From an uncultured Cetobacterium sp. (GTDB taxonomy: Bacteria > Fusobacteriota > Fusobacteriia > Fusobacteriales > Fusobacteriaceae): a DNA stretch of 64,000 nt. The notes beneath the pieces are model-generated. The model did not search any database. It had not been told where the DNA came from and saw nothing but the letters and a program-made list of their open reading frames with translations. Location: positions 6,832 through 70,831 of the forward strand of contig NZ_CAMFHX010000005.1 in NCBI RefSeq assembly GCF_945952365.1, in the 5' to 3' direction. Shown here in pieces: positions 8,923 to 32,743 of the stretch (positions within the stretch are counted from its first letter, which is position 1; every line of letters begins with the position of its first letter). The position numbers and the translations under genes were made by a program.

Positions 8923-9672
8923 TTAATATTGGTCACTAGCTCAGCTAGTAATCCTTTAAGAAAACGATATCTTGGAAAAATAACTGGCAGAGCTTTAAGA
9001 CTATATACTTTTCTCATCACTAAATCTGACATGGTGATTCGCTTTTAAATTTTCAAAATATTTTATACCTTGACCTTTCGATAAAAGTAAATAGAAAAGG
9101 AGATTACCATATCCAATGATATCGCAATCTCCTACTATTCTAAGGCTAACTTATCTGATTCTTTTCCAGTTCTCTTATTTTTTTTATATAATCTAAAATT
9201 CATCCATTTCATCTACTGAAATTTCATAAACTCTTCAATATCGTACGTAAACTGTATTATATTTCTTTTTGCTTTAGACATATATAACACTTCCTAATAT
9301 CTCTTCTTTTACTTTTTCTTTGTAGTCTTTTACATCTGGATTTTTAAACTTATAATCAAAGACACTTTTTTCAACTAAATCTATCAGTACATAGTATACC
9401 ATATTTAAATTAGAATTTTACTTTACAAATCTACTATAATGATCTAAACACTAAATACTTTTAAAAAAATAATTTTTAAACTCTTCTCTTTTTTATACAA
9501 TATCAGATTTTGTAAAATTAAAGTTGACCTATCATTTAACATATGAGAGTACTTTTATTACTTTTTTAATTAATTATAACACAAAATTAAAAAAAACTGC
9601 CAACATTTATTGTCGACAGCTAGAAATAGAATATAAGTAGATTTTCTTTCAATATAATTTTTTATTTATTTT

Positions 9673-12662
9673 TTAAATCTTCTCAAAAAAATTCTCAAAA
9701 CTGTGAGCTACTTTAAAATCTATTCCAGTATCAATAGCTTTGAAGTGCTCTTTTCCACATTTTATCTTTAGGTTTTCTGTTTCTCTTCTATCCTCTTCAA
9801 ATAGAGAACCTTTAGTTTCAACAACGAAATATAGTTTCTCTTCAGCTCTATCTAAATTAGGTCTTACTAAAACAGCCCAGTCAGGATTATAGTTTCCTAG
9901 AGGTGTTGCTATTTTAAACCAAGCTGGAAGCTTAGCATATACAACAACATTTTTATTTCTCTCTAAATCTTGAGCAAAACTACCTTCTATATCTGAATCT
10001 ATAATAGCGTGAGAATATGGTGACTTTGAACTTTCAATCATATTTCCATTTTTATTCATCTCTGTTTTTAAGTACCCAAATAAATCCTCTGTTTCGAATA
10101 ACTCTTGGCAATAGTACTCCTCTTCACCTAGCTTTTCATACTTAATTCCATCAACTATAAATGCTCTCATAGTTCTTTTTATAACTTCTGTAACCTGCTC
10201 TAAATAAAGTTGTGGATCCTTTTTAAAACTGTATAAAGTTGATGTTCCTGTAAGAATCTCTACTATACTTTTTCTTGTTAAGTTAGTTTCATTTTGTAGA
10301 TAGCTTACAATATCTGGCAGCTTATATCTATTATAAATCTTCATTTCCTCATGCTCAGATACTCCTAACCCATCCTCTTCTATTCCGCCTTGAGTTATTT
10401 GTAATCTCTTTTTTTCGAATAAAAACTTTTCAGATGGTATATATACTGTATTATCAATATTCTCTATACATTTTTTTATTAACTCTTCTTTATTAAAATT
10501 AACTCTGTAAGTAGTTTTATATTTCACCTTTTCCCAAAGTTCTTTAAACTCCTCACTCAATAAAACACCCTTATTAAGAGCAATCTTCTTTTTGTCATCA
10601 GCATTCTTGATAACTAATTTTCCAGCAGTAGATTTTAACTTTTTAATAATAGCAAGTTCTAAAGGTTTGAACTCCTCTGGTAAAACTACTTTATTATCTC
10701 TTAAATCTATTTTTAGTTTATCCTCTGCAATACCTTTAGAGTTTATATAGTTTTGAGTTAACAGATAACTATATATCTCTTCTGATTTTTCATGTCCTAA
10801 ATAAACTTCTTTTCCATACTTTATCTCTGTCACTATATTTGAGAATATATGACTTTCAATAACACCAAATTTGATATTCTCCTCTTTTTCCATCTCTTTT
10901 TGTAGACTATCAACAAATTGTTCATAAGACTCATTTGCCATAACTGTTAAAGTATTCACTTCAAATCCACGAACTCTTTCTCCGTGTTGGTTAACGGCAA
11001 TTCTAAGACCTCTTCCAATCTCTTGTCTTTTCTTTATTTCAGATGTAGTTTCATTCAAAGTACAAATTTGGAATACATTTGGATTATCCCATCCCTCTTT
11101 AAGAGCAGAGTGAGAGAAGATAAATGATAGTGGTTCATCAAAGCTTAATAGCCTTTCTTTATCTCTCATTATTTTGTTAAATGTATCGTTGTCTGCATTA
11201 GTATTTCCCTTTGTATCTTTTTCTTCAAAGTATTCTTTACCACTCTTACTTTTCTTTTTATCCATTGAAAAATAACCATCGTGAACAACAGCAGGTCTTT
11301 CATGCAGAGGAACAGATAATGTACCTAAATCGTGGTACTCAGGATGCTGGATAAGATTAAGATATTCCTCTTCAAACATAATAGCATACTTACCTTTTTT
11401 AGGTTCACCAGTTTCAGTATCATAGATTCTATAGTTTGATACTTTATCAATAAAGAATAGAGATAAAACTTTTATCCCTTGATACTTCAACCTTTTTTGT
11501 TTGTCTAGATGCTCTTTTATAGTTTTTCTAATCTGTAATCTTTTTATAGTATCTGGATTTTCTCCACCGTTTAGTTGTCCTAGAGTAAGTTTAACCTTTC
11601 CTAGATCTACAAAAGATTTAGCAGGGTCCTCTTCATTAAATGTTATTTCATTTACCATATAGCCATCATAGATATCTCTTTTAGTTTTTTCACTTAGAAT
11701 ATCACCATGTTTTATTGAAACCTCTTTTCTAGTTACTTTAGCTCCACTTTTAACATCTAACTCTAACTTTGCACTGATTCCAGTTTTAGTAGCTTTTATA
11801 TCTGTAACTCTTATATATTCTGTATTAGAATTACTACTTACACCTACAGTTGCAACTTCAATCTGTTTAACAAGTTGCTTTTCATAAGCATCCACAGAAT
11901 CTAATTTGAACACAGGATTATATTTTTCTTTATGAGTAGCTGAATATCTTAAAGTACAAAGCGGATTTAAATCTTTTATAGCTTCTTTTGCTTTATCACT
12001 TTCCATGTTTTGAGGTTCATCTATTATTACTACTGGATTACACTGTTGGATATAATCTATTGGTCTATATCTCTTTCTTGCTTTATAACGTTGCTGTCTT
12101 TATTAAAAGAATCTATATTGATAACCATAATTTGAATAGTATCATTAACAGCAAAGTTTCTTATCATATCTATCTTTTTAGAATCATATATGAAATAATC
12201 ATAAGGTACATTATCATACAATCCTTTAAAGTGATCTTTAGTAATCTCTAAAGTTTTGTAAACTCCCTCTTTGATAGCTATTGATGGAACAACTATTATA
12301 AATTTTGTAAAATTATATTGTTTGTTTAGTTCCATTATAGTTCTTAAATAAACATACGTTTTTCCTGTACCTGTTTCCATCTCTACTGAGAAGTTGTAAT
12401 CATCTTTTTTTAGTTTCTTAGTTTGTGGTAATCCGTTTTTAACTTGAATAGAGTTTAAATTTTTTAAAATCTCTTCAGGAAATAGCATCAAGCCATTTCC
12501 TATACCAAGTTCATTTTCAACTGTTCCTAAAACCATTTGAGCTCCTGTTGATTTTTCCACAGTAAACATTGTTTTGTTGCTCTCTTGACCAGAGAATATA
12601 TCTGTAATAGATCCGATTGCATCTAATTGATAACTTAAATCATCTTCAAATTTTATTTTCAA
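9673..12662 (-). pseudogene. res: Type III restriction endonuclease Res subunit, split by a frameshift near 12057-12090 (N-terminal 201-aa ORF 12057..12662 plus C-terminal ORF that is open to 12093)
   Basis: N-terminal ORF carries helicase motif I (TGTGKTYV). Upstream of the annotated Met, the downstream frame reads ...RPIDYIQQCNPVVIIDEPQNMESDK with motif II (DEPQ). The two halves are in frames offset by one nucleotide. Confidence 0.7.
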
Positions 12663-12664
12663 TA

Positions 12665-13663
12665 TTATTCCTCCTCCATAATTAATTTTTTTATATCCTC
12701 TTTTGAAGGAAGAATTGTTTCATATCTACTTGCAAAGATTTGCTCGTTGTTTTCTGGCAGTGTTATCTCTACCAATGTATCATTTTTTTCACGACATATT
12801 ATTATTCCAATAGTTTTATTTTCTTCTGGTAATTTAATAAATCTATCATAGTAGTTAACATACATTTGCATTTGACCTAAATCTTGGTGAGTTACTTCTC
12901 CTATTTTCAAATCAATAAGAACAAAGCATCTCAATAATCTATTATAAAAAACTAAATCTACTCTAAAATGTTTTTCATCAAAAGTAAATCTAACTTGTCT
13001 TCCTACAAAAGTGAATCCTTTTCCTAGTTCTAATAAAAACATCTCTAGCTTGTTAATTATTTCTGATTCTAAATCATGCTCTGAATACTGGTGCTTCTCT
13101 GGAAGCCCTAAAAATTCTAGTACATATGGATCTTTTATTACGTCTATTGGTTTTTCTATTATTTGACCTTTTAACGATAACTCTTTTACAGATTCTTTAT
13201 TTCTACTTAAAACTAATCTTTCATAAAGAGCTGAATCTAATTGTCTTCTAAGTTCTCTTAAACTCCAATTACTGTTAAAAGCTTCAATTTCATAAAACTG
13301 TCTTTCCTCTATATTAGATATTCTCATAAGAATAAGATAATGAGACCAAGATAGATTGAATTCGTCAGACAGTGTCTGACGAATCTTATAAACATCATAA
13401 AAGGTTTTCATCTGCTTTAAATTTGTTTCAGAAAATCCCTTTCCAAAATCCTTTGTTAATCTTATAGAGAGATTTTTTAAAAGTTCTTTACCATAAGTAC
13501 CTCGATATTCACCTTTTTGCTCCTCTTCTAAAATTAGCCTTCCTATTTCAAAATAGGTTTTTACCATGGTTATATTTACTGTTTTCAATACCTTTTCTCT
13601 AGAATTTTTTAAAATATTTAAAATATTTTCATAAAAAATTTCGGTTTTATTTTGCATCTCCAT
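12665..13663 (-). CDS. DUF1016/YhcG-like PD-(D/E)xK nuclease-fold protein inserted between mod and res
   Basis: C-terminal FRVDLVFYN...FVLIDLKIGE resembles the YhcG (DUF1016) nuclease core. 2-bp gaps to both neighbours. Confidence 0.6.
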   Translation of the reverse strand: MEMQNKTEIFYENILNILKNSREKVLKTVNITMVKTYFEIGRLILEEEQKGEYRGTYGKELLKNLSIRLTKDFGKGFSETNLKQMKTFYDVYKIRQTLSDEFNLSWSHYLILMRISNIEERQFYEIEAFNSNWSLRELRRQLDSALYERLVLSRNKESVKELSLKGQIIEKPIDVIKDPYVLEFLGLPEKHQYSEHDLESEIINKLEMFLLELGKGFTFVGRQVRFTFDEKHFRVDLVFYNRLLRCFVLIDLKIGEVTHQDLGQMQMYVNYYDRFIKLPEENKTIGIIICREKNDTLVEITLPENNEQIFASRYETILPSKEDIKKLIMEEE

Positions 13664-13665
13664 AA

Positions 13666-15549
13666 CTATATGCTCCTAATCTCTTTTATTCCAGCTTGTT
13701 TTAGCTTTTGAATAGCGTTTGTTTTATCAACATCATTACTAAATGAGCTATCTCTTAGTACTACTGTAGTTTTATAATCTTCATCTATTTCTAATAGCAT
13801 CTTATACTCTTCACATATAGAATCTATGACATCTAAAGTTATCTCTTTATCCAGGTTAACTAAAAGAGTTCCCCCTCCTATCGAATAGAAATCTTTATTC
13901 TCTACGATTGAAACATTAAGATCTAATCCATATTTTAAAAGAATTTCATAAAGAACATCTAGTGAAGTTCTATCAGCTTTTATATTATCTACTGAATCAA
14001 ATAAAGTTTGCTTTAAATCCTCTGTTTCTGAATCCCACTCTTTAATATTAGAAGTGTCTAGCTTAAATACTTTAAATCCAACGTCTAATTTTTCTCTATT
14101 TTCTAAAGGTAAACTTTCATCAGATTTAATTTTTTCTCCAGCTCTTCTGATTCTTTCTTTTCCTATTTCACAGATGTTTTTGTATCCTGCTTTTGCTGCT
14201 TCTGAATTTTCAGGTGTAGGCTCAGGTAGTTGCACCATTATATATTTTCTATTTCCCCCATCCTCTGCATTTAACTGCATAGTAGCATGAGCCGTTGTTG
14301 CTGAGCCTGAGAAGAAATCTAAGATAATATCTCTACTTTTTGAACTCAAAATTAACATTCTTTTTAATAAATCTATTGGTTTTGGATAATCAAAAAATGC
14401 ATTCCCATCAAAAAGTTTTTTCAACTCTTGTGCTGCTTGTTGATTATGCCCTACTTCATTATAAAACCATAGTGAATTAGGAACAATTCCTGAACTGACT
14501 TCTGATAAAAAAGTTTTTAACCTTGGTGGATTTTCACCACTTGTTCCAAACCAAATTCTGTTTTCAGATACCAATTTATTAAAGTTTTCTTTATTCGTTC
14601 CCCAATATCTACCATTTGGAGGATAAACTTCTTTTCCCGAAGGCGTTGTTATCTTATATTTTAACTTTTCTGTTCCAGATGCTGTTGAAAATACAACTGA
14701 TCTCCATGGTCCCCTAGAATCATTATCAATATTTTTATAATCTTTATTGTCTTCTTCCGTTCTTTCTAAACGATACAATTCAAACCCATCTTTACTATCT
14801 TTTGTTTTCTTTTTAAGCTTTGAATATACTAAAATTGTTTCATGCATAATTGAAAAGTAAGTTGCATCATTTTGTCTCGCAAATTTCTTTTGCCAAGCTA
14901 TATCGACTATGAAATTTTCTTCTCCAAATATTTCATCACATATTTTTTTTAAATTTGTAACTTCATTATCATCTATCGATATAAATATTACTCCATCATC
15001 TGTTAGTAGATTTCTTGCTAGCTTTAATCTTGGATATATCATATTAAGCCAATCAGAGTGGTATCTTCCACTGCTGTCTGAATTTGTACTTAGCTTTTGT
15101 CCCTCTTCTCCAGTTTGCCCTGTTATTTCTAAATAATTCTTTAAACTGTCTTTAAAGTTATCAGGGTATACAAAATCTTTTCCAGTATTATACGGAGGAT
15201 CTATATATATCATTTTAACTTTGTTATGATATGATTTTTGAAGTAGTTTTAACACTTCTAGATTATCACCTTCTATATATAAATTATCTGTGTTATCCCA
15301 ATTTTTAGAGTCTTCTTTTGAAGGTAAAAGTGTTCCAGTACTCGTTTCTTGTGCTATTCTTCTTGCATTAGATTTCCCATGCCAATTGAAAGAGTATCTC
15401 TCGTTTTCTGTATCAATATGTTCCCCTAATACAACTTTTAAAGCATTAAAATCAATCTTATTTTCTGAAAATATTTCAGGAAATATTTGTTTTAATTTCT
15501 CTATATTATCTTGAACTATATTCATGCTTGTTCCATTTAGTTTTTCCAT
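13666..15549 (-). CDS. mod: Type III R-M Mod subunit (N6-adenine DNA methyltransferase, beta class)
   Basis: Motif IV IYIDPPYNTG precedes motif I FFSGSATTAHA. N-terminus KLKQIFPEIFSENKIDFNALK...ERYSFNWHGK is typical of Type III Mod. Confidence 0.85.
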   Translation of the reverse strand: MEKLNGTSMNIVQDNIEKLKQIFPEIFSENKIDFNALKVVLGEHIDTENERYSFNWHGKSNARRIAQETSTGTLLPSKEDSKNWDNTDNLYIEGDNLEVLKLLQKSYHNKVKMIYIDPPYNTGKDFVYPDNFKDSLKNYLEITGQTGEEGQKLSTNSDSSGRYHSDWLNMIYPRLKLARNLLTDDGVIFISIDDNEVTNLKKICDEIFGEENFIVDIAWQKKFARQNDATYFSIMHETILVYSKLKKKTKDSKDGFELYRLERTEEDNKDYKNIDNDSRGPWRSVVFSTASGTEKLKYKITTPSGKEVYPPNGRYWGTNKENFNKLVSENRIWFGTSGENPPRLKTFLSEVSSGIVPNSLWFYNEVGHNQQAAQELKKLFDGNAFFDYPKPIDLLKRMLILSSKSRDIILDFFSGSATTAHATMQLNAEDGGNRKYIMVQLPEPTPENSEAAKAGYKNICEIGKERIRRAGEKIKSDESLPLENREKLDVGFKVFKLDTSNIKEWDSETEDLKQTLFDSVDNIKADRTSLDVLYEILLKYGLDLNVSIVENKDFYSIGGGTLLVNLDKEITLDVIDSICEEYKMLLEIDEDYKTTVVLRDSSFSNDVDKTNAIQKLKQAGIKEIRSI

Positions 15550-15552
15550 TTT

Positions 15553-18270
15553 TTAATCATCTCCATTTATATATTCTAAATACGCTTCTAATATTATGTC
15601 ATTTTTATTTTTTGATTTTATATAATTTTGTAGTAAACAAAGTAAATTTTTATTATTATTTGAATTTTTAATTAATTCTCTTAGTCCTTTTTTAGTAAAA
15701 ATTTCAAAATCATATAATTTAAATAGAGAATAATCAAAGTTTTTTTTATCTAAAGAATAATTTAAAATATTTTGAAATTCTTTTTTCTCAATATACTTAA
15801 TCACATTTTCATTGTCATAATTTTTCATATATTCTATGAATTCAATCGTTACTAAGTTGTTTAAAAGTAAATAAAAAATATTATTTAAAATAACATCTGC
15901 CGTACTTACTAAGGATTTATCTAAATCTAAACTTTGTAACTGCTCTATAATCAATTTTTCTTGAGAAAAATTAGGAGTTATTAATTCTAAATCTATCATT
16001 AATATATATGTTAACATTTCAAATTTTTCTTCTAACTTTATTTTTTCTTCGTTAACAATCTTTTGAATTAAACTTTCCTCTAAAATTCTTGTAAAATATA
16101 ATCTAATCTCTGAATTACTTTTTTCTAAAAAATTTAAAATTTCTTTAGACTCTATAATTTTATCTTCTGTTTTTTCTTTAAAATGATAGGTTAAAAAGTT
16201 AATCAAATCCGAGCTCGGATTAATGAAATCTTTTTCATCAACTATTTTTAAAATTAAATCTTTTAATATATCGCTCTTTAGCTTCTTTATTATTGTATAA
16301 AGAAAATTTATAAAATTGGAAACAGTCTCTCGATACAAAATGTGACTAGAAATAAATAATTCAAAAAAAATAGTGTCATTTAAAATAGTAGTTATACATT
16401 TATTAGCCTGTTCTTCTGTTAGAGACATTTTTGATAATAAAAAAAATATCTTTTGAAGTATTCCATTTACCTTTTCTTTCGATTTTTCTGAAAAATCAAG
16501 AATATTTTTCAAACTCAGAATTAGATTTTCAACACATGATTTATCACATTTTAACTCATCTATAAAATAATCTTTAAATAATAGCTTTAAATCATTTAAA
16601 TTTAATTGTATCATTAAAAAAATATCAAGATAACAAACCTTATCTATTTTTTCAAATTTTGAACCTTTACCTAAAAACTTTTTACCATCTTGAACTTCAT
16701 TAGTATAAGCTATAAATAGTATTTCTAAATATTTTTTTGTAATTTTATACATCTCAAAGCTATTCAAACTTATTCCATTAAATATACAATGATTGAAAGC
16801 TTCTTTTATATAATATTCTGAATTTTCTATTACTGTCATTCCTAAATGACAACTATTTTTATTTCCTCTTATTTTATATAAATAATTTTCAAATTTTTGT
16901 TCAATTTTGCTCAAAGTTAAATTTTCAAAAATTTCTTTATATAACTCTGTCTCATTTTTAAAAAACTTTCTATATATTTTATTCAAATCAATTTTATCCT
17001 TATTTTCAAAGTTGAATCTGTGTTCTTCATTTTGAATATTTGACAAAATAAAATTATTCCAAATAATTTTCTCTCTGGGTAACTTTTGAATTTTATATTC
17101 TTCAATTACTTCTTTAGCTTTTTGAAATTCATTAAAAAATGTAAAGCCGCACGCTATTAGATAATTATTTTTTATTTCATGGATTAAATTTTCAAATTTA
17201 TTTTTATCAAAAATCATTATTGAATTTACTATGCTATTCTCATATTCATTAGAAAACAACTCATTAATCTCTATTTTCTCAGGTTTATTTATAACTATAT
17301 TATTAACCCGAGCTTTAAAAAATATGTCTTTATATTTATATGAATCATCCATTTTTTCTACTGTTATTCCTTTAGTTGTTATTATCCCTTCATCCGAAAG
17401 AAAGTATTTAGAAACGCTTATATCTTTTATAATTTTTTTTAAATTATCTTCTGTTATATAATTTAAATTTTCATAAATCTTAAAGTTTTCTTTCATTTCA
17501 TTATTTTTCCTTCTAGACTCTAAATCTTTTAAAAATTCAGCCAATGTTTCACCTTTGTTACCATTTAAACATTCCAATGAAATCTCATTTATTAATTTAT
17601 TATTATTTTCATTATTTTCAAAATTAACAAGGTATACTTTTCTAAAGTCCTCATTCAATATATCACTAATCCACTTCATAATATTTTTAACATTTATATC
17701 ATTCAATGAATAACCTATAAACAGAACCGTATTTGTTGTAAATAAACTTTTTACAAATGTTGTTATTAATGGAAAGTTTTGTTCATATTTATCATAATCA
17801 CTTTTTTTTAAAACAACATTTCTATTTTCTATATCGCCATGCATTTTAATTATCATTTTTTTGGATTTTGAATATGCTAACTCTTCATCTTTAGTTACCA
17901 AATCATATTCATTATTTTCATTTAATTCAGTTTCAATCAAATTATCATAATTTGTTGTTATTATATAGTCTAAATTAAGTTTACTCAAAGCTTTATGAAT
18001 AAAGTTTGGTTCGTGATTACCCTTAAATGTTTTTTCTAAAATATCATAATACTTTATTTTTCCAAAATGATTATAAAATTTTTCAGGAATTTCTAACATT
18101 TCTTCAGAGCTATAATTATCTTTTTTTATTCCCATATATTCTGCATAACATTTTACCAATGAACTCCAACTAGGCAAATCGCTATTCATTGAAACTCCTG
18201 CTCCAACAAAAATAACTAATTTTTGATTTTGTAATTCTTCTGCTAAAAAATCAATATACTTTTCGTTCAA
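15553..18270 (-). CDS. SIR2-like domain protein (905 aa; N-terminal SIR2_2 NADase-like domain plus long helical C-terminal region; DSR2/ThsA-like)
   Basis: LVIFVGAGVSMNSDLPSWSSLV, TTNYDNLIE, KMHGD and VLFIGYSLND match SIR2_2 core motifs. Stop is 3 nt from the mod start, and the mod RBS (GGAGA) lies inside this ORF. Confidence 0.7.
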   Translation of the reverse strand: MNEKYIDFLAEELQNQKLVIFVGAGVSMNSDLPSWSSLVKCYAEYMGIKKDNYSSEEMLEIPEKFYNHFGKIKYYDILEKTFKGNHEPNFIHKALSKLNLDYIITTNYDNLIETELNENNEYDLVTKDEELAYSKSKKMIIKMHGDIENRNVVLKKSDYDKYEQNFPLITTFVKSLFTTNTVLFIGYSLNDINVKNIMKWISDILNEDFRKVYLVNFENNENNNKLINEISLECLNGNKGETLAEFLKDLESRRKNNEMKENFKIYENLNYITEDNLKKIIKDISVSKYFLSDEGIITTKGITVEKMDDSYKYKDIFFKARVNNIVINKPEKIEINELFSNEYENSIVNSIMIFDKNKFENLIHEIKNNYLIACGFTFFNEFQKAKEVIEEYKIQKLPREKIIWNNFILSNIQNEEHRFNFENKDKIDLNKIYRKFFKNETELYKEIFENLTLSKIEQKFENYLYKIRGNKNSCHLGMTVIENSEYYIKEAFNHCIFNGISLNSFEMYKITKKYLEILFIAYTNEVQDGKKFLGKGSKFEKIDKVCYLDIFLMIQLNLNDLKLLFKDYFIDELKCDKSCVENLILSLKNILDFSEKSKEKVNGILQKIFFLLSKMSLTEEQANKCITTILNDTIFFELFISSHILYRETVSNFINFLYTIIKKLKSDILKDLILKIVDEKDFINPSSDLINFLTYHFKEKTEDKIIESKEILNFLEKSNSEIRLYFTRILEESLIQKIVNEEKIKLEEKFEMLTYILMIDLELITPNFSQEKLIIEQLQSLDLDKSLVSTADVILNNIFYLLLNNLVTIEFIEYMKNYDNENVIKYIEKKEFQNILNYSLDKKNFDYSLFKLYDFEIFTKKGLRELIKNSNNNKNLLCLLQNYIKSKNKNDIILEAYLEYINGDD

Positions 18271-18294: not shown

Positions 18295-18356
18295 AAAAAA
18301 AAGACCCCTATGTTACCACTTATTTCTAAGCGATATGCCTTTCGGCTATAGGGGTA
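18295..18356 (-). terminator. Terminator-like structure between the 226-aa gene and the SIR2 gene
   Basis: Minus-strand ACCCCTAT...ATAGGGGT 8-bp stem (long loop with a GCCGAAAGGC sub-hairpin) followed by T8. Confidence 0.35.
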
Positions 18357-18418
18357 CGGATCTTATTTATTCATTGATAAAATTATAACTCAAAAATAAA
18401 TACGTGTCAATCAAATCC

Positions 18419-19099
18419 CTATTTAAACTCTTTTTTTTCTTTCATTTTAGCCACTAGTTTAGTTTGAATCTCAGCTATTTTATTAAGTTGAGTCTCTTTT
18501 TTTCTAAGAGCTTTCAATTCCTCTATCTCTTTATTTAAAGCCTCTAGTTTTTCTATGTTCCTAGTATCTATGTTTGAATCTATTTTTAGAGTTTTAGATA
18601 GATTATATATTTTTATTTTTTCTATTATGCTTTCGTAGAATAGTTTCAAATTAGTTGAATTAAAATTTTTATAAATAAGTTCTTTTAAATATTCGTCATC
18701 ATTGTTTATCCATAAACTATTTTGCAACTCTTCGACTTTAAAAGTATTCTCTGTAATCTCCTTTTTAGCTAAAGAGATTAGTATCTCATTTTCGAAGCCT
18801 AAGATTACAACAGTTGCTTTAGGAATAAGCTGATGTAATAGCTTTGAAACTGTATTTTCTTTTCCCTTTTCTTTTAATTCAACTTTCAAAAAGTTAATCT
18901 CTTCATAACGCTCTTTACTGTCTATATAGCTTTCAATATTTGTATTCTTATAATTTAATATATATTGGAGTCTGATTCTTTCCACATTTTCTACAAATAT
19001 TCTTTTTAATTTTTCATCTGCATCTGCAACCCTATAAATTATCTCTTTAGGTACAATCTTATCTATCTTCAACTCTTTAGGAAAATTAAATATCTCCAT
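18419..19099 (-). CDS. Hypothetical protein (226 aa) with a K/E-rich coiled-coil C-terminus; last gene of the helicase/ATPase operon
   Basis: Intact ORF 49 bp downstream of the ATPase gene. No motif recognised by eye; possibly DUF4391-like, unverified. Confidence 0.4.
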   Translation of the reverse strand: MEIFNFPKELKIDKIVPKEIIYRVADADEKLKRIFVENVERIRLQYILNYKNTNIESYIDSKERYEEINFLKVELKEKGKENTVSKLLHQLIPKATVVILGFENEILISLAKKEITENTFKVEELQNSLWINNDDEYLKELIYKNFNSTNLKLFYESIIEKIKIYNLSKTLKIDSNIDTRNIEKLEALNKEIEELKALRKKETQLNKIAEIQTKLVAKMKEKKEFK

Positions 19100-19148: not shown

Positions 19149-20039
19149 TTAAAGCTCTAATTCCATAACATTTTCTAAAATATTGTCCATAGATTGACCA
19201 TATGTTAACTCATTCAGTTTTTTTATCTCTATTCCTGAACTGCTCTTTTTCATTACTCTTACATTCTCATTCTTAACACTTCCTATTATGTGTGGAGAAT
19301 GTGTTGCAATTATTACTTGGTTGTTATCACCTATATTCTGATATATTTTTATTATCTTTTGTTGCCATTTTGGATGTAAAGATATCTCTGGTTCATCAAT
19401 TAATATTATCGCATTTTCAGCCTCTATCATCTTAAGGGTAAGTGCTCTCATAAAAAGTTGCTTTTCTCCAGAAGAAAGTCCATTAATATCAAAAACTTCT
19501 CCAAAAGAGTTACTAAATAATGGTAAATCTTTTTCATCAGGAGTAAATCCAATCATTTTTATATCTAACTCTAACTCTTTGAATATTTTATTTGTTTCCT
19601 CTGAAACTTTATCCTTTATCTGCTTATAAGTCATATCTTCGTTATTTTTTTGCATCAGTTTTACTTTTGTTGCTAAATATGATGGAATATCTTTTACTAT
19701 ACTCGAATCAACTTTATTTAAAAATTTGTACTCATATTTATATTTATCACTAGCATTTTTTATCTCTGAAAAATTTATTTCTGTTGGCATATATATAACT
19801 TTAGATAATTTCTTTAAATCAGCTTCTTCATTTAAAAATTCAATTTCTGTTTCGCTTACCACTTCATTATTTTTATTCAAAAAATAATTATAAATAGCTT
19901 CTAATAAATTCGTTTTACCACTCCCATTGCTTCCAGCTATAACTATAAGTTCTTGAGCTTTTCCATCTTTATCCAAAAAATCTATATTTAAATTTTTTAA
20001 TATTTCATGATTTTTTAATTGTATATTTTTAATTTTCAA
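19149..20039 (-). CDS. Small ABC-type/AAA_21-like ATPase (296 aa)
   Basis: Walker A VIAGSNGSGKTNLLEAI; Walker B/D-loop AIILIDEPEISLHP; ABC signature-like LSSGEKQLF. Confidence 0.7.
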   Translation of the reverse strand: MKIKNIQLKNHEILKNLNIDFLDKDGKAQELIVIAGSNGSGKTNLLEAIYNYFLNKNNEVVSETEIEFLNEEADLKKLSKVIYMPTEINFSEIKNASDKYKYEYKFLNKVDSSIVKDIPSYLATKVKLMQKNNEDMTYKQIKDKVSEETNKIFKELELDIKMIGFTPDEKDLPLFSNSFGEVFDINGLSSGEKQLFMRALTLKMIEAENAIILIDEPEISLHPKWQQKIIKIYQNIGDNNQVIIATHSPHIIGSVKNENVRVMKKSSSGIEIKKLNELTYGQSMDNILENVMELEL

Positions 20040-20052
20040 TTTTATTCTCCTC

Positions 20053-23000
20053 CTACTTTATAACTAAAAATGATATCAACTCAAAATCATCCATGTTTTG
20101 TGCTGAGTTATTTAGAATAGTTTCTCCAAAGCTGAATAAGCTCTCTAGACCTTTCTCCTCTTCTTTTCCAATTATGTTTTGAACTGTTTTTTCCAAGAAG
20201 TTAGTAAACTTTTTCATATCTTTAGCTTCACTTGTTTCTGTATTAAACTGTGCTATTAAATCTGTATAAACCTTATCCTCTCCACTACAAACTTTCTTGT
20301 AAAGATCCAAGATTTTTTTACTTTGAATAAAGTTTAGTAAAACCTCTCCATCATCTTTTATATAAACTAGGAAATAAGGATTTAATGGATTATGCTCACT
20401 TGGCTTCAATTCATTATTAATCTGTTTTAAGCAGAATATAACCCCTTTTTCAGCTTCCTCTATATTACTTTTAGCAACAGCATACATTCCAGTTGATGTA
20501 TTTTCTAAAACCTCTTTATTCTTTTTCATATAGTTAACTAAATCCATTTTGAAATCATTAAATGTCAAATCTGTTATAGAGATTCCACCGCTTATGTCTT
20601 CTAAATCAACGACTTGCTCTTGAAGTTGATGTAGCTGCTTCTTTCTGTAATCTAAATCATTCATATTCTCACTGTCAGTTATTATGTTTTCCTCTCCAGT
20701 AGCAGACATATCTAGCATTACCATTCTTCCACTAACTCTAGCTTCTAAGTTGATATATTCATCCAACTCCATATTAGGCCAGAAGTTAACAAGTTGTATA
20801 ACTTCATTTTTAGATCCAATTCTATCAACTCTTCCGAACCTTTGAATAATACGAACAGGATTCCAGTGAATATCATAGTTTATTAAATAATCACAATCTT
20901 GTAAGTTTTGTCCCTCTGAAATACAATCAGTTGCAATTAAAATATCAATCTCAGGTAGATTTGATTCTCCTCTTTCTTTAGATCTTGGAGAGAAGTTTGT
21001 AAGAATTGTATTGAATTCATTTTTAATACCTTTTAAAGTACTTTTAGGATTGTCACTTCCAACTACAAGAGCTGAATGAATTCCTAACTCTTCAGAACAG
21101 TATTTTGAAATATTGTCATATAGATATTTTGCAGTATCCGCAAAAGCTGTAAAGACTATAACCTTTTTATTTTCTGAATTTAGTGGAGATTGTACTTTAT
21201 TAGTTATAAGTTTTTTTAACTCTAATAACTTTTTATCTCTTCCTGGATTTATTAAATAAGCCTCTTTTAAAAGCTTTTCTAAAATCTCCTTATCTTTTTC
21301 CAGTTCAGATTTCCATTTAATTTGATCAATATCTTTTAAAAGAACTTTAACTTTCTTACTTCCTATTAAAACACCATCTAATCTATTATCATCTATATCA
21401 ATCTCTTCAATATCAAAGTCTTCTACAATATCTTCACAACTATCTAATTTTTGTAATGCAGAATCTATATTTTTCAGTAACTTTGAAACTGTTAATCCAA
21501 ATGAGTAAATAGAACTTTCCATTCTTTTTAAGATATTTATTCTCATTAGGTGTACTAAACTTTCCTCTCTATCCACTTGCTTAAATACAGACTTTCCAGT
21601 TTTAGTATCATATTTTTTACTATATTCATCTATCTTACTAGGAAGAACATATTTAATAGAACAATAGATTGCTAAGTTTAAACTTCTTATCAATCTATTT
21701 AAATCTGGAAGAGGTATAAACTCGTTTAATTTATCTATGTCAGCTTTTATATTTATTGGTTTCAATCTTTCAGGGAATTTACCAATACTTGATGTATCAT
21801 AATACTTTTGAATGTGTTTTCTAGATCTAGCTATAGTAAGCATATCTAAAAGTTTAAAATAATCCATCTCTAAAAACTCTAAAAGAGTTTCTAACTTCTT
21901 TTTCTCTTCAGGTAGATCAGACCATCTGTTAAAAGCCATTTGAGCTTTTCTTAAAGTTTGCTCTATACTTTTTATTCCATGAATATTAAGAGCTGCATCC
22001 TCTCCCTCTGTTGCAAAAGCGATTTGATTTTTCAAATCGTTCATCTTATTGTTAACAGGAGTTGCAGAAAGCATCAGAACCTTTGTTTTAATACCTTTTC
22101 TAATAATTTGATTTAATAGTCTAGAATATCTAGTTTCTTTATCATCTTTTTTATTATTGTTATTTCTAAAGTTATGTGATTCATCTATAACAATTAGATC
22201 ATAATTTTCCCAATATATTTTCTCTAAATTTATTTCACCACTATATCCAGAGTATCTAGAAAGATCTGTATGATTTAACACATCATAGTTAAGTCTATCT
22301 TTTTCTAAAACATTATCTTTTCTATTTCCTTTATATGTCAGCCAGTTATCTCTTAACTTTTTAGGACATAGTACAAGAACTCTGTTGTTTCTTGATTCAT
22401 AATACTTTATTACAGCAAGAGCCTCAAAAGTTTTACCAAGTCCAACTGAATCAGCTAAGATACAGCCGTTATATTTTTCTAGCTTATCTATTGCTCCTAA
22501 AACGCCATCTTTTTGGAAATTATATAGTTTATTCCAAACAACACTCTCTTTAAATCCAGTTTTACTTTTTACAATATCCTCTTCACTTAGATTATCTAAG
22601 TAATCTTTAAAAATATTGTAAAGAGTAACAAAATAAATAAATTCTGAAGTGTTTTCTTTATAAACTCCCTCTAAAGTTTCTAATAGTGATTTTTTTACAT
22701 CTTTAACTTTTGAGGTATCGTTCCAAAACATATTAAATTGGTTAACCATTTGAGAGGTATACATGCTGTTTTTAACATATGTATTCATTTCAGGTTTAGA
22801 TGAGGCTACTAGTCCAAGTCCTCCAGAAGTGAAATCTGAACTTCCAATAATACAAGAACTTTCCTGTTTTTTATTCTCCATCAAATACATTTTTTGTGGA
22901 AGAGAATACTCTTCATCATAAGCTCTAACTTCTACCTTATTTCTAATCCAATCTGCACACTCTTTAGCTATCTCAGATTGTTTAAGTTCATTTTTAAGGC

Positions 23001-23268
23001 TCATTTCATATCTATCCCCAGCTAAGCCTCTTTCGTAACTTCCACTTAATTTAAACTCTCTGTTTATATCTTTTTTATCTTTTATAAAAGTTGGCTCAGA
23101 AAAAAGTAATCTTAAACTTTCTATTTTCCCTAACTCTTTTCTTAAGTGCTCATAGGCATAAATAGTGAAATATGCTGAGATAATAGAAACCTTTGTTCCT
23201 GATCTCAGATCATCCTTCAACTTATCTATAACCCTTCCATTGGTTTTATTATCTAAAAACTCCATCAA
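20053..23268 (-). CDS. PLD-like nuclease domain fused to SNF2-family helicase (1071 aa)
   Basis: N-terminal PLDc_2-like segment (VSIISAYFT...GSSDFTSGGL). SNF2 motif I ILADSVGLGKTFEA, motif II LIVIDESHNFRN, motif VI IIQRFGRVDRIGS. Confidence 0.75.
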   Translation of the reverse strand: MMEFLDNKTNGRVIDKLKDDLRSGTKVSIISAYFTIYAYEHLRKELGKIESLRLLFSEPTFIKDKKDINREFKLSGSYERGLAGDRYEMSLKNELKQSEIAKECADWIRNKVEVRAYDEEYSLPQKMYLMENKKQESSCIIGSSDFTSGGLGLVASSKPEMNTYVKNSMYTSQMVNQFNMFWNDTSKVKDVKKSLLETLEGVYKENTSEFIYFVTLYNIFKDYLDNLSEEDIVKSKTGFKESVVWNKLYNFQKDGVLGAIDKLEKYNGCILADSVGLGKTFEALAVIKYYESRNNRVLVLCPKKLRDNWLTYKGNRKDNVLEKDRLNYDVLNHTDLSRYSGYSGEINLEKIYWENYDLIVIDESHNFRNNNNKKDDKETRYSRLLNQIIRKGIKTKVLMLSATPVNNKMNDLKNQIAFATEGEDAALNIHGIKSIEQTLRKAQMAFNRWSDLPEEKKKLETLLEFLEMDYFKLLDMLTIARSRKHIQKYYDTSSIGKFPERLKPINIKADIDKLNEFIPLPDLNRLIRSLNLAIYCSIKYVLPSKIDEYSKKYDTKTGKSVFKQVDREESLVHLMRINILKRMESSIYSFGLTVSKLLKNIDSALQKLDSCEDIVEDFDIEEIDIDDNRLDGVLIGSKKVKVLLKDIDQIKWKSELEKDKEILEKLLKEAYLINPGRDKKLLELKKLITNKVQSPLNSENKKVIVFTAFADTAKYLYDNISKYCSEELGIHSALVVGSDNPKSTLKGIKNEFNTILTNFSPRSKERGESNLPEIDILIATDCISEGQNLQDCDYLINYDIHWNPVRIIQRFGRVDRIGSKNEVIQLVNFWPNMELDEYINLEARVSGRMVMLDMSATGEENIITDSENMNDLDYRKKQLHQLQEQVVDLEDISGGISITDLTFNDFKMDLVNYMKKNKEVLENTSTGMYAVAKSNIEEAEKGVIFCLKQINNELKPSEHNPLNPYFLVYIKDDGEVLLNFIQSKKILDLYKKVCSGEDKVYTDLIAQFNTETSEAKDMKKFTNFLEKTVQNIIGKEEEKGLESLFSFGETILNNSAQNMDDFELISFLVIK

Positions 23269-23379: not shown

Positions 23380-23622
23380 TTATATATTTTCAAGTATTTC
23401 TAATTCTCTCTCTATCAAATCCTTTAATTTTCTTAACTCTTCTTCTGTTAATGTTATTCCTTTCCCCATTTTTTTATGTTCAGGATCCCAAGTTCTAATA
23501 TCATACTTTGGTTCTTCTCCATTCCAACTTATACGAGTTAATTCTTTTTTCCACCCCTTACTTCCCTCTGAGAGAATTCCCAATTCATTTAAAATTTCAA
23601 ATTTTAATTCTTGTTTACTCAT
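23380..23622 (-). CDS. PC4-like (YdbC-family) ssDNA-binding protein, 80 aa
   Basis: ISWNGEEPKYDIRTWDPEHKKMGKGITLTEEE matches the bacterial PC4/YdbC fold signature. Start overlaps the stop of the upstream 1615-aa gene. Confidence 0.55.
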   Translation of the reverse strand: MSKQELKFEILNELGILSEGSKGWKKELTRISWNGEEPKYDIRTWDPEHKKMGKGITLTEEELRKLKDLIERELEILENI

Positions 23623-23623
23623 T

Positions 23624-26600
23624 CTAAGCCTCCTTCATTTTTATTCTCCAAGCTTTTCTATTTCCTGTAGCTTTTGCTCCTCTTTTATCAAAAGTATATC
23701 CATAGTTTTCAGTCTGTAAAAACATCTCTACTTTTCCTTCTATTTCAGGAGTATAGATAATCCACAGCAATCCAGAACTCTCATTATTATCGATATATTC
23801 TATCTGGTGTTCATTTAAAAAAGTATATATGTTCTTTTTTTCTATTTTTTTCATCTCTTTTTCAAACGATAAATTTAATTGTAACTCCTTGCTATTATTT
23901 AAAGTTTCTATAATATTTTTTTGAATTCTTTCAACTTTTTCTGTTTCTTCTAATCCTAGGTTTACTTCTTTAATATCTAAAACATTCTCTTCTTTCACAT
24001 CTATAATTTCAGGATTTTTATAATTCTCTCTCCATTCTTCAAGAAGTTCTAAAGATCTATTTTTTATTTTATTTGTAATCTCCATCTCACTTTCTGTTTT
24101 TACAGCTCTAATATCCTCTGGATAAATCTCTCTTTTCTCCAACTCTTTTATCACATTTTCCATTGTTAAATCTTTATTTCTAAAGTATTTACTTCCTCTT
24201 ATTCTAATAAACTCCCAGCCACATCTCTCTAGTACTTCTTGACGCTCCATATCATTTCGAATTTGTTCTTCACTGCTATGCCATCTATCTCCATCACATT
24301 CGATTGCTACTCTTTTATTTCCATAAGAAATAACCATATCAATTCTATAGGCACCTACCTGCCATTGTTGTTCAATATTATAATTTCTAGCTGAAAGATA
24401 CTTTGCAACCTCTTCTTCAAAAATAGAGTCTGATTTTTTTTCAATATTCTCTCCTTGCATAAAATAATTTGGATTTTCTGCAAATTCTAAAAGTTCTCTT
24501 CTTATATCATCATTTTTTAAATCATTTAATTTATCCAGAGAGTGTACTATCCACATCTGATTTTTTGCTCTACTTGTCGCTACATTATATCTTTTCTTTA
24601 CTGAACCCTCTGCCCCATCACCTGTTTTTCTTAAAGGTCCATCCTCGTTTAGATTACTATCAACCATACTCAAAAATATAACATCTCTTTCATCTCCTTG
24701 AAAATGACTTGCATCTCCACAAAGAATATTATGTTTTTCTATTTTAGAGCTCCCTACTTTTTCTACCAGCAATTTTTGAATTACATCTACTTGCTCTTTT
24801 CCTAACAATGATATTACTCCAAATGATGAATTTTCATATATTTCTTCTTCTAAACAAGCACAAATCAAACTTACAATCGCTTCAGCTTCAACTATGTTAG
24901 TTTTACCATCTACTCCTCTTTCTCCTAAGACCCTATGATTTATAACAGCTGGTTTTAATTTAGAGCTATTAGCTTCTCTTAAAGGCTTTATTTTGTAGTC
25001 ATATGATGTTTTATTGCTATATGAAATAATTTCTGGAACACATCTAAAATGTTCTCTTAGCATTAAAGGTTGATATGTTGTTGAAGCAATTGAATATAAA
25101 GAGCTTTTAGTATCATATAAATCATAATTACTGATTCGTCCCTTCAAGTATTTTTCTCTCAATATATTTTCTTTTTCTATTTTTTGCCCTATTCCTAGAG
25201 GACTAACTTGCTTATCATCTCCAACAATTATTACTTTTTTAGCCATATATAATAATACCAATGAAGAAATATCCGATTGACTAGCTTCATCTATTATTAC
25301 TATATCGAATTTGTTTTTAGCAGGATTTAAAGTATCAATAACTTTACCCATAGGCATTATCCAAACTGGCACAGCTTTTTGACAACTTGATATTTTTTCT
25401 TTTGCTTGAGCTCGATACATTTCAACATTTTTTCCTGTTCCTTTACCCATTTTTTCAATTGTTTGCTTCCATCCTCTTAAAGCTTGACTTATTAATAAAT
25501 TATCTTTTCTCTCTACAAAACATAAAACATGATACCATGATTTTTTTTCAACTAATTTCAATGTCAATCTTTTCAAATTTAAAGACCTTTGCTTTAGTTG
25601 TTCTTGCAATTCTTCATAAGGCTCTTTTTCTAATTCCTCCATTTTTTTCGAAAGTTGACTCCATTTCCAAACTTCGTAAATATCTTCAATCTCTTCTTCG
25701 AAAGTTCCATTTTTTAAACTCATACAAAAATCCCTTGCTACAACTTCTATTTTGTTTAATAATTCGTGCTTTTTATTATATAGCACTCTTTTTTCTGACG
25801 TATTTTCTAATATCTGTAACCACCTAGCATACTCTTCATAATTCTCATTATAAATAGCCAACCTAATATTTGTTTCAATCATGGATGATTGCTTTGAATT
25901 TTTCAAAATTAAACTATAATATGTCGCATATTCTTTCTTTACTTTTAATAAGTTCATTCCAGCTTGAATTACCTTCAAGGTCTTTTCTAATTTATGACCT
26001 AGACTACAAATCATTTTGACTTGTTCAAACATAAATTCTGTTTTTTTATTATCTAAAAGATAGTCTATATTTAAACCTGCATCTTCTATATTTTTTAAAA
26101 AAATTTGCTTTTGATTTTTATTCCATTCTAGGAAATAGTTTAATTTATTTATGTAATTATAGGCATATTCTAAAAATTCATCCCCTTCTTTCTTAGAAAT
26201 TTCATTTATTTTTATCAATATATCCCATTTTTTCTTTAAATTTTGCTTTTCTTTTTCTATCTCTAAAAAGTTTAAAACTAATTCACAGTCTTCATTTGTT
26301 ACTATTTCTTTTCCATTATAATAAATTTTTCCCTTCAAATTATCTTTTGCTTTTTTTAAATTATTTTTAAACAAAAAACCCGGATTTTTTAAGGCTTCTT
26401 TAAATTTTTTCAAAAGTTCTATTCCTTCTGAAATGTCTATAAAATTATGCTCTATTATCTTATCAAAATATATTTTCCTACTTTTATCAACCAGATTATA
26501 AACTTCCTCAATATTTTTTATCAAATCTTTATAAAGATCCTTTTTTGAATTCTCATTACATCCTACTAATATAATTTCAAGTTGCCATTCTTCTATTTTT

Positions 26601-29582: not shown

Positions 29583-30680
29583 TTAATAAGCCAGTAGTGT
29601 TCTACCAACTTCACGAATATTTATACTTGCATTTAGGTCTCTATCCATACTATGACCACATTCACAGTTATATACTCTATCTCCTAAAGAAAGCGAGTCT
29701 TTTATGTTTCCACAAGAAGAACAAGTTTTTGACGATGGAAACCACTTATCTATTTTTATTACTTGTTTACCTAAAAACATAGCCTTGTACTGAAGCATGA
29801 CTGTGAATAATCCCCAAGAGTTATCAGCGACAGATTTACCAAAGTTTAATGCCTGACTCATACCTTTCATGTGCAGGTCCTCAATGATAATCGCATTATA
29901 CTTTGTAACTAATTCTCTTGATAACTTGTGGAGAAAGTCTTTTCTACTGTTTTTAATAGATTGATGGATTTTAGCAACTTTCAATTTAGCTTTATACCAA
30001 TTACTTGAAAATTTAACTTTTCTTGACAGCTCTCTTCCAGCTTTAGCTAATTTAGTTTCTAATTTTCTAAAAAATCTAGGATAATCAGCTCTTTGGTTAT
30101 CAGAGCTAACGAATAATTCAGACATAGAAAAATCAAGTCCAACGATATTGTTATCGCTAGGTACTTCTTTTATATCTCTTTGAAATTCAGTAAGAATAGA
30201 AACGTAAAAAGCCCCATTAGGTTCTTGGCTAATGGTAGCAGATTTAATTTTATAATTTTGAGGTATATTTCTATGAAGTTTAGCTTTAACTAATCCCAAT
30301 TTAGGAAGCTTTAAGAAAGTACTCTCTATTCTAATAGAGTTATTAACACTATTTGTAGAATAAGATTTTCTAGCTGTTTTTTTAGATTTAAACTTAGGAA
30401 AAGCTGTTCTTTTCTGAAAAAAATTAGTGAATGCAGTTTTTACATTCATTTGAGCATTGGCTAAAGCTAGACTATCAATTTCTTTCAAAAATGGAAATTC
30501 AGATTTAAGAGAAGCAGGAGTAATAATTTTATTTTTACCCTCCAATTCATAAATCTCTTTAGCTTTACCCAAAATCTTATTATATACAAACCTAACACAA
30601 CCAAAAGTTTGTAAAATCAAATTCGATTGAACTTCATTTGGGTATATTCTAAATCTAAAAGCTAAATTATATGTCTTCAT
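29583..30680 (-). CDS. tnpB: TnpB (OrfB) RNA-guided nuclease / IS605-family transposase accessory protein
   Basis: N-terminal RFRIYPNEVQSNLILQTFGCVRFVYNKIL OrfB_IS605 motif. RuvC-like core. C-terminal zinc finger CSSCGN...CECGHSMDRDLNASINI. Confidence 0.85.
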   Translation of the reverse strand: MKTYNLAFRFRIYPNEVQSNLILQTFGCVRFVYNKILGKAKEIYELEGKNKIITPASLKSEFPFLKEIDSLALANAQMNVKTAFTNFFQKRTAFPKFKSKKTARKSYSTNSVNNSIRIESTFLKLPKLGLVKAKLHRNIPQNYKIKSATISQEPNGAFYVSILTEFQRDIKEVPSDNNIVGLDFSMSELFVSSDNQRADYPRFFRKLETKLAKAGRELSRKVKFSSNWYKAKLKVAKIHQSIKNSRKDFLHKLSRELVTKYNAIIIEDLHMKGMSQALNFGKSVADNSWGLFTVMLQYKAMFLGKQVIKIDKWFPSSKTCSSCGNIKDSLSLGDRVYNCECGHSMDRDLNASINIREVGRTLLAY

Positions 30681-32656: not shown

Positions 32657-32743
32657 TGGTGCCTGAGGGGGGACTCGAACCCCCAAGGTGTTAGCACCGG
32701 CGGATTTTGAGTCCGCTACGTCTACCAATTCCGTCACTCAGGC
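32657..32743 (-). tRNA. tRNA-Leu (anticodon CAA), class II with long variable arm; CCA encoded
   Basis: 7-bp acceptor stem GCCTGAG/CTCAGGC. Anticodon loop CU-CAA-AA. Long variable arm. T-loop GGTTCGAGTCC. 3' CCA. Confidence 0.9.

Follow-up and report, generated by a model that had tools for sequence, protein, structure and literature searches.

A divergent DSR2-like sirtuin gene packed into a Type III restriction-modification operon of an uncultured Cetobacterium sp.

The contig NZ_CAMFHX010000005.1 of an uncultured Cetobacterium sp. contains, within a stretch of 64,000 nucleotides (nt) analysed here as a whole (the window), a gene for a 905-aa sirtuin (SIR2-domain protein) lying directly ahead of mod, the methyltransferase gene of a restriction-modification (R-M) system of Type III, of which the nuclease gene res is broken. 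This arrangement raises the question whether the sirtuin acts together with, or in place of, the restriction enzyme, or whether it is an independent defence protein that shares the operon with it. An earlier reading made from the nucleotide letters (the sequence-only reading) had proposed a hybrid or replacement defence, possibly a methylation-aware depletion of NAD+. The results described below point to another answer: the gene probably encodes an autonomous abortive-infection NAD+-hydrolysing enzyme (NADase) of the DSR2 type, embedded as cargo in the restriction operon.

Family, fold and selection of the sirtuin

The sirtuin gene occupies positions 15553-18270, as the sequence-only reading had placed it, and is located on the minus strand with a TTG start codon and a TAA stop codon. 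A strong Shine-Dalgarno sequence, AAGGAAAGGAG, lies upstream of the TTG, and alignments showed that both this start codon and the N-terminal sequence MNEKYIDFLAEEL were kept in relatives. More than 1100 homologues were found, mostly full-length and with approximately 38% identity; Cetobacterium and Leptotrichia were among their named sources, and a copy from a metagenome bore the source label CLOSPO_02616. This number of homologues, together with a ratio of nonsynonymous to synonymous substitution rates (dN/dS) of 0.27 when compared to a relative encoding a 94%-identical sirtuin (locus L001), demonstrated that the open reading frame (ORF) is a true gene and not a chance one. Its assignment to the DSR2 family, described below, drew on the ORF, Pfam, profile searches, and AlphaFold2 (AF2) modelling with Foldseek.

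The four SIR2 core motifs quoted for the N-terminus by the sequence-only reading were all found in the translation, as FVGAGVSMNSDLPSW (FVGAGVS..LPSW), ITTNYD, KMHGD, and LFIGYSLND, and Pfam matched the protein to SIR2_2 with an E value of 1.4e-26. The Pfam scan of the sirtuin gave SIR2 hits only, and neither a DNA-reading nor a methyl-reading domain was reported. A family profile was then built from 120 homologues and searched against the PDB sequences. Residues 33-997 of the DSR2 chain of Bacillus subtilis aligned to profile positions 9-929 in a single stretch (E 1.2e-57), and the profile alignment showed C-terminal motifs common to the sirtuin family and DSR2, namely NGI.., Y.DF (YfDF), and ENFDYxKF. 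The residues N107, D109, and H144 were invariant in both the 22- and the 120-sequence alignments. N107 and H144 aligned to N133 and H171 of DSR2, which are the catalytic residues of that enzyme (PMC11087589). The catalytic His and Asn, which could not be assigned by eye before, were thus both retained.

The AF2 model of the sirtuin, predicted on the family alignment, reached a mean predicted local distance difference test score (pLDDT) of 85.6 and a predicted template modelling (TM) score of 0.76. When this model was compared to the PDB by Foldseek, the top 44 matches were all DSR2 chains, with approximately 1030 aligned columns, a best E value of 5.6e-25, and TM scores of 0.46-0.60. Even a DSR2 chain of 659 residues matched the model over 751 aligned columns (E 4.5e-13), as against approximately 270 columns for the matches restricted to the SIR2 domain. 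The protein can accordingly be divided into three domains, all encoded on the minus strand. The SIR2 domain with predicted NADase activity (aa 1-235; 17566-18270) carries the three invariant residues. The middle domain (aa 236-480; 16831-17565), of mixed beta and helical structure in the AF2 model, was aligned to DSR2 by both HMMER and Foldseek. The C-terminal domain (aa 481-905; 15556-16830) was predicted to be all-helical and alpha-solenoid-like with pLDDT mostly above 85, contains the motifs common to DSR2, and is presumed to be the sensor. The 700 C-terminal residues had been described as lacking any recognisable domain. This description did not hold, as approximately 650 aa appeared DSR2-like by the 120-sequence profile and by AF2 with Foldseek.

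The same order of domains is known from DSR2 of B. subtilis 29R (PDB 8WKN, 8K98, 8WYB, and others), with an N-terminal SIR2 domain bearing the catalytic Asn and His, a middle domain, and a long helical C-terminal domain. DSR2 has 1005 aa, and the sirtuin is thus approximately 100 aa shorter but similar overall. Two of the features that mark DSR2, an N-terminal SIR2 domain with the catalytic Asn and His and homology extending through the middle and alpha-solenoid C-terminal domains, were both found. Judged from the predicted fold and the full-length profile, the sirtuin is a divergent member of the DSR2 family, and the single-protein architecture suggested earlier was borne out. A 120-sequence C-terminal profile reached several more distant SIR2 proteins of 950-1000 aa (E 1e-8 to 1e-26) and did not reach a SIR2 protein of Bacillus velezensis. 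A metagenome scan with the C-terminal motifs gave just 10 loci, mostly duplicates, and the search of plasmids with the sirtuin gave SIR2-domain matches only, with a query cover of 31% or less.

The best matches were defence sirtuins, namely ThsA, Dsr2, Dsr1, and KomC, whereas classical sirtuins gave E values of only 0.02-0.4 or so. The best PADLOC model was the SIR2 part of ThsA from the Thoeris system (E 8e-38, aa 3-225; aa 2-225 for the ThsA models overall). ThsA is a fusion of SIR2 with SLOG/STALD that works with the TIR partner ThsB. In contrast, the sirtuin has no SLOG/STALD domain, its C-terminus is DSR2-like, and no ThsB TIR gene was detected among its neighbours by Pfam or PADLOC.

Selection on the locus was estimated by comparing the window with L001. 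The identity of the sirtuin decreased from 100% in the SIR2 domain to 95% in the middle domain and 91% in the C-terminal domain, while the genes flanking it were 97-100% identical, mod excepted. The dN/dS values were 0.05, 0.17, and 0.36 for the three domains, respectively, the last being the highest in the locus, when compared with 0-0.13 for the neighbouring genes. The sirtuin is thus under purifying selection overall, and its presumed sensor changes fastest. Such a gradient fits a sensor under arms-race pressure. The G+C content of the gene (20.6%; 15% at third codon positions) was the lowest in the island, the neighbours having 26-30% and the window 30.4%, which is consistent with a separate origin of the cargo.

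Operon packing and the cargo slot

The close spacing of the sirtuin gene and mod, noted in the sequence-only reading, could be read directly in the junction sequence. Only the three letters AAA separate the TAA codon at 15555-15553 from the ATG codon of mod at 15549, a gap of 3 nt, and a GGAG sequence at 15564-15561 lies ahead of mod within the sirtuin reading frame. The mod gene (13666-15549, minus strand) encodes a 627-aa Type III methyltransferase with DPPY and FSGSATT motifs (Pfam N6_N4_Mtase, E 7e-42; PADLOC MTase_III, E 1.5e-230). It is followed by a gene for a DUF1016/YhcG protein of the PD-(D/E)XK type (12665-13663, minus strand; Pfam YhcG_C, E 4e-58, and DUF1016_N, E 4e-42; PADLOC candidate PDC-S02, E 2e-137), and this in turn by res, with gaps of 2 nt at both the mod-DUF1016 and the DUF1016-res junctions. 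The terminator scan found no site between the sirtuin, mod, DUF1016, and res. The sole strong terminator-like site downstream of the sirtuin was a hairpin of 11 bp followed by T8 after res (9595-9621, minus strand), likely the end of the operon. With gaps of 2-3 nt and no intervening terminator, the four genes are predicted to form one operon, as had been proposed.

Conservation of the sirtuin-mod adjacency in other genomes, on which the earlier proposal depended, was found at three levels of sirtuin identity. In L001 and L002 (94%), the sirtuin gene is followed after 3 nt by mod, then by DUF1016 and an intact res of 1000 aa. In L084 and L085 (85%), an ORF matching the N-terminus of Mod at 28 of 30 residues begins 2 nt after the sirtuin gene. 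In L088-L093 (39%), the sirtuin gene overlaps mod by one base, and a res of 998 aa comes next. The Mod of the window was 81.5% identical to that of L001 (L001 12028-13890), with strong divergence in the target-recognition region (approximately aa 195-410), which implies a swap of methylation specificity. The mod gene of L088-L093 (approximately 8.95-9.1 kb) was found to contain a poly-G tract varying from G10 to G15 among otherwise identical contigs, with the frame on at G10 and G13 and off at G11, G14, and G15; the mod of the window has no such tract. Such a change in tract length is classic phase variation, and it affects the Type III mod that lies immediately downstream of the sirtuin in these contigs.

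The genes are ordered on a single strand as SNF2-HKD, DUF4391, sirtuin, mod, DUF1016, and res. The HKD+SNF2 helicase gene (20053-23268, minus strand) was assigned by Pfam and PADLOC, its best model being C3a139 HKD+Snf2 with 487 bits, and the DUF4391 gene (18419-19099, minus strand) by the same two tools. Both genes were also located upstream of the sirtuin in L001, L084, and L112, and DUF4391 was in L088 as well. Between the lineage of the window and L001 and that of L088, Res was 75%, Mod 62%, and DUF4391 53% identical, as against 39% for the sirtuin (68% in the SIR2 domain and approximately 30% elsewhere). Across lineages, the identity of frame genes was 53-80%. The helicase, DUF4391, Mod, and Res thus constitute a four-gene frame, and this frame also occurs without the sirtuin. 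On a conjugative plasmid of Enterococcus faecium (L121; CP142861, 3138-11958), the helicase was 45%, DUF4391 30%, Mod 49%, and Res 47% identical to those of the window. On a Methanomethylovorans plasmid (L122; NC_019972, 1978-12003), the helicase was 55%, Mod 48%, and Res 54% identical, and DUF4391 was annotated. The frame therefore spans Fusobacteriota-like contigs, Enterococcus, and a methanogen plasmid; DUF4391 itself has almost no literature.

The content of the slot between DUF4391 and mod varied. In the window and in L001, the sirtuin stands there alone. In L088 it shares the slot with GmrSD_N, an SMC-like ATPase, an unknown gene, and GmrSD, and in L112 with Abi_2 and GmrSD, while the archaeal plasmid has a hypothetical gene at this place. 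Between mod and res, the window has DUF1016, Thiodictyon has RhuM, and Enterococcus has a small gene of unknown kind. The sirtuin thus has both properties of an embedded defence gene, being in the same orientation inside a cluster that also exists without it. The GmrSD gene overlaps the start of the sirtuin by 8 nt in both L088 (4036-8566) and L112 (5192-8669), forming a recurring pair of GmrSD and a DSR2-like protein. An Hma identity of the frame was considered and rejected, as PADLOC gave HmaA 106 bits when compared with 487 for HKD+Snf2, and the best models for the methylase and the ATPase were MTase_III and PtuA, respectively.

The leader upstream of the sirtuin was also examined. A predicted consensus sigma-70 promoter (TTGACA-17-TATAAT; 18382-18410, minus strand) showed 12 of 12 matches and was the best in a 15-kb scan. 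Between this promoter and the ribosome-binding site of the sirtuin, a Y-shaped hairpin (18354-18305) followed by U8 (18302-18295) was predicted on the minus strand, the whole element covering 18295-18354 with a folding energy of -29.9 kcal/mol and a z score of -3.7. Promoter and hairpin were kept in L001 and L002, where two substitutions in the hairpin both preserve pairing, and were wholly absent in L084 and L085, where the gap between DUF4391 and the sirtuin is only 22 nt. The hairpin matched no Rfam family, had no second copy in the window and none in viral contigs, and among the fetched loci was confined to L001 and L002. One possibility is that it terminates the helicase-DUF4391 unit and has a promoter inserted immediately ahead of it; others are an attenuator holding a toxic gene low and a small RNA.

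Proposed mechanism and rival explanations

From the relationship to DSR2, we infer NADase activity, a phage-protein trigger, and autonomy from Mod and Res for the sirtuin. For DSR2 itself, the trigger is a tail-tube protein, which acts directly and needs no partner, and DSAD1 is an inhibitor. By homology, the C-terminal helical domain of the sirtuin would bind a phage protein, and the binding would switch on the N-terminal SIR2 domain. This domain would then hydrolyse NAD+, and the resulting depletion may stop phage replication and abort the infection. The sirtuin gene is a cargo in a variable slot of the four-gene frame. Because it shares transcription and translational packing with mod, DUF1016, and res, the arrangement would allow the co-expression and co-transfer of restriction, as a first line at the DNA level, and of a protein-sensing abortive second line. 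The sirtuin is encoded in an operon of the Type III R-M type with translational packing, whereas prototype DSR2 was cloned and is active as a lone gene (bioRxiv 10.1101/2021.12.14.472415).

The genomic context of the family was also surveyed. The GTDB scan was seeded on the SIR2 motifs, and as many of the loci turned out to be other SIR2 proteins, they were re-sorted with a hidden Markov model (HMM) of the family. The fetched loci formed 45 clusters at 80% identity, and a gene overlapping the sirtuin or located within 60 nt of it was counted as an operonic neighbour. The R-M neighbours were of five kinds, namely Type III (three lineages), an AlwI-type IIS endonuclease with a double D12 methylase (two clusters), Type ISP, FokI-type IIS with an M.FokI-like enzyme, and Type I HsdR. 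Tight neighbours apart from R-M were SLFN/AlbA_2, KwaB, Tn7 TnsD, a resolvase, a small SIR2 protein, and GmrSD. Of the nine close clades, three (P0013, P0023, and P0040) were solitary among housekeeping genes, and the R-M linkage of the family is therefore frequent, not obligate. These solitary clades, together with the single-gene action of DSR2, count indirectly for the autonomy of the sirtuin. Short SIR2-only proteins were tried as a background control for R-M adjacency and dropped, because they have obligate system partners and are not comparable.

Several results weigh against an autonomous DSR2-type enzyme. An R-M gene was an operonic neighbour in 8 of the 45 clusters and in four of the eight informative close clades, these being counts for this sample, and a linkage that recurs in this way, treated here as co-location, could reflect a functional tie. 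The overall identity between the sirtuin and DSR2 of B. subtilis was only approximately 19% (32-34% in the SIR2 domain). The PADLOC model of Dsr2 matched (E 1.3e-24) at aa 5-276 only, corresponding to positions 12-305 of 1222 in the profile, and the C-terminal 600 aa by themselves, searched as a profile of 10 sequences, gave no match in the PDB. The proposed C-terminal homology to DSR2 is thus drawn from the full-length HMM alignment and the predicted fold, rather than from the C-terminal sequence taken separately.

The recurrent linkage is what would be expected if the sirtuin served as a guard of restriction, being held inactive by the R-M proteins or monitoring them and firing once they are disabled by an anti-restriction factor of a phage; its coupling to mod would then be functional and not merely a matter of position. 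A precedent is PrrC, an abortive-infection effector embedded in the EcoprrI Type Ic locus and activated when Stp of phage T4 inhibits EcoprrI (PMC12707154), and the family members found within 60 nt of, or overlapping, R-M genes of five kinds in the sample agree with such a role. In the case of PrrC, the R-M enzyme masks the effector physically and an anti-restriction peptide acts as the trigger, whereas the sirtuin family has members free of R-M, the three solitary clades having no R-M gene nearby, and the obligate association that characterizes PrrC was not found. The R-M partners are moreover mutually unrelated, with the sirtuin variously upstream or downstream of them, the frame exists without the sirtuin, and prototype DSR2 responds directly to the tail-tube protein without a partner. 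We therefore regard a guard of this kind as unlikely. A wider version, in which the repeated and often overlapping coupling to five unrelated kinds of R-M would mark a general restriction-backup circuit, with the sirtuin depleting NAD+ in a PrrC-like manner upon failure or inhibition of restriction or when mod is phased off, is likewise improbable.

The replacement of a decayed Res by the sirtuin, with Mod marking self and the sirtuin depleting NAD+ in a methylation-aware manner, drew its appeal from the window itself, where a broken res stands beside an intact mod and an intact sirtuin gene in tight coupling. The res gene (9673-12662, minus strand) is indeed divided between two ORFs, of 201 aa and 777 aa, matching positions 1-195 and 222-985 of the PADLOC REase_III profile, so that the frameshift noticed in the sequence-only reading stands. 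Its cause was not a single-base slip: 13 bp, TCAAGCAAATGGG, present in the intact res of L001 are missing from the window, with the junction between 12070 and 12069. The rest of the gene was 99% identical to that of L001, with a dN/dS of 0.04. Thus the window holds a whole mod and a split res, and both genes of the Type III pair are whole in L001 and L088, with Res of 1000 aa in L001 and L002 and of 998 aa in the L088 lineage. As the flanking sequence is approximately 99% identical to that of L001, the loss is very recent and constitutes a strain-specific knockout, not an evolved Res-less design. Since res is intact in relatives, including the lineage with a 39%-identical sirtuin, solitary clades and a sirtuin-free frame exist, and the predicted fold matches that of DSR2 throughout, an architecture for sensing proteins, with SIR2 as the only Pfam hit and no methyl-reading domain, the hybrid or replacement defence of the sequence-only reading is unsupported and, in our estimate, very improbable.

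Finally, the sirtuin might be a housekeeping or regulatory NAD-dependent protein deacylase merely located in a defence island. Pfam did give a weak match to SIR2 (PF02146; E 1e-3), which fell under the curated cut-off; the best matches were defence sirtuins, the full DSR2 architecture was recovered, and the gene sits in a 20-kb run of defence genes, so that we give this explanation hardly any credence.

Neighbouring genes and relation to known systems

Between the helicase and DUF4391 sits a gene for an orphan PtuA-like ABC ATPase of 296 aa (19149-20039, minus strand; PADLOC PtuA, E 6e-108, profile positions 112-338 of 404). It has no PtuB partner, is absent from L001, and probably represents either the remains of a Septu system or one more cargo. 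Further along the defence run, an SF1 helicase of 1615 aa that carries an MTES_1575/DUF559 nuclease at its C-terminus (23624-28471, minus strand; PADLOC PDC-S37, E 8e-72; Hhe-like) is followed by a gene for an 80-aa PC4-like protein (23380-23622, minus strand). In L001, gene calling gave two separate genes for the counterpart of this helicase, one of 470 aa and one of 1114 aa. Just past the run, a TnpB gene (IS605 OrfB/Cas12f-like; 29583-30680) and tRNA-Leu(CAA) (32657-32743) may mark the boundary of the island.

The arrangement resembles that of embedded defence genes, for example BrxU, found in BREX, or TgvAB, found in a Type I R-M, which are likewise nested cargo in the orientation of the host, with a frame that also occurs without cargo and with GmrSD-like genes in the same slot. 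A survey of such genes (Payne et al. 2024, bioRxiv 10.1101/2024.01.29.577857) covered Hma, BREX, DISARM, and Type I R-M, and 96.7% of the embedded genes were in the host orientation; its main text names neither SIR2 nor Dsr. The host frame described here, Type III R-M with HKD-SNF2 and DUF4391, differs from the hosts in that survey. As embedding has already been described for other defence systems, the locus is not a new kind of immunity. It is a known kind of genomic arrangement holding a divergent new member of a known family, and no new mechanism is revealed.

Approximately 650 aa once without a recognisable domain are now placed, on the evidence of profile and fold, in the structurally understood DSR2 family, which is thereby extended to Fusobacteriota and to oral and gut anaerobes (Cetobacterium, Leptotrichia, and Streptobacillus). 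The frame of HKD-SNF2, DUF4391, Mod, and Res appears as a landing pad for cargos, including DSR2-like proteins, GmrSD, Abi_2, DUF1016, and RhuM. The idea of embedded defence is extended in this way to Type III systems, and the slots flanking mod provide a handle for finding more cargo genes.

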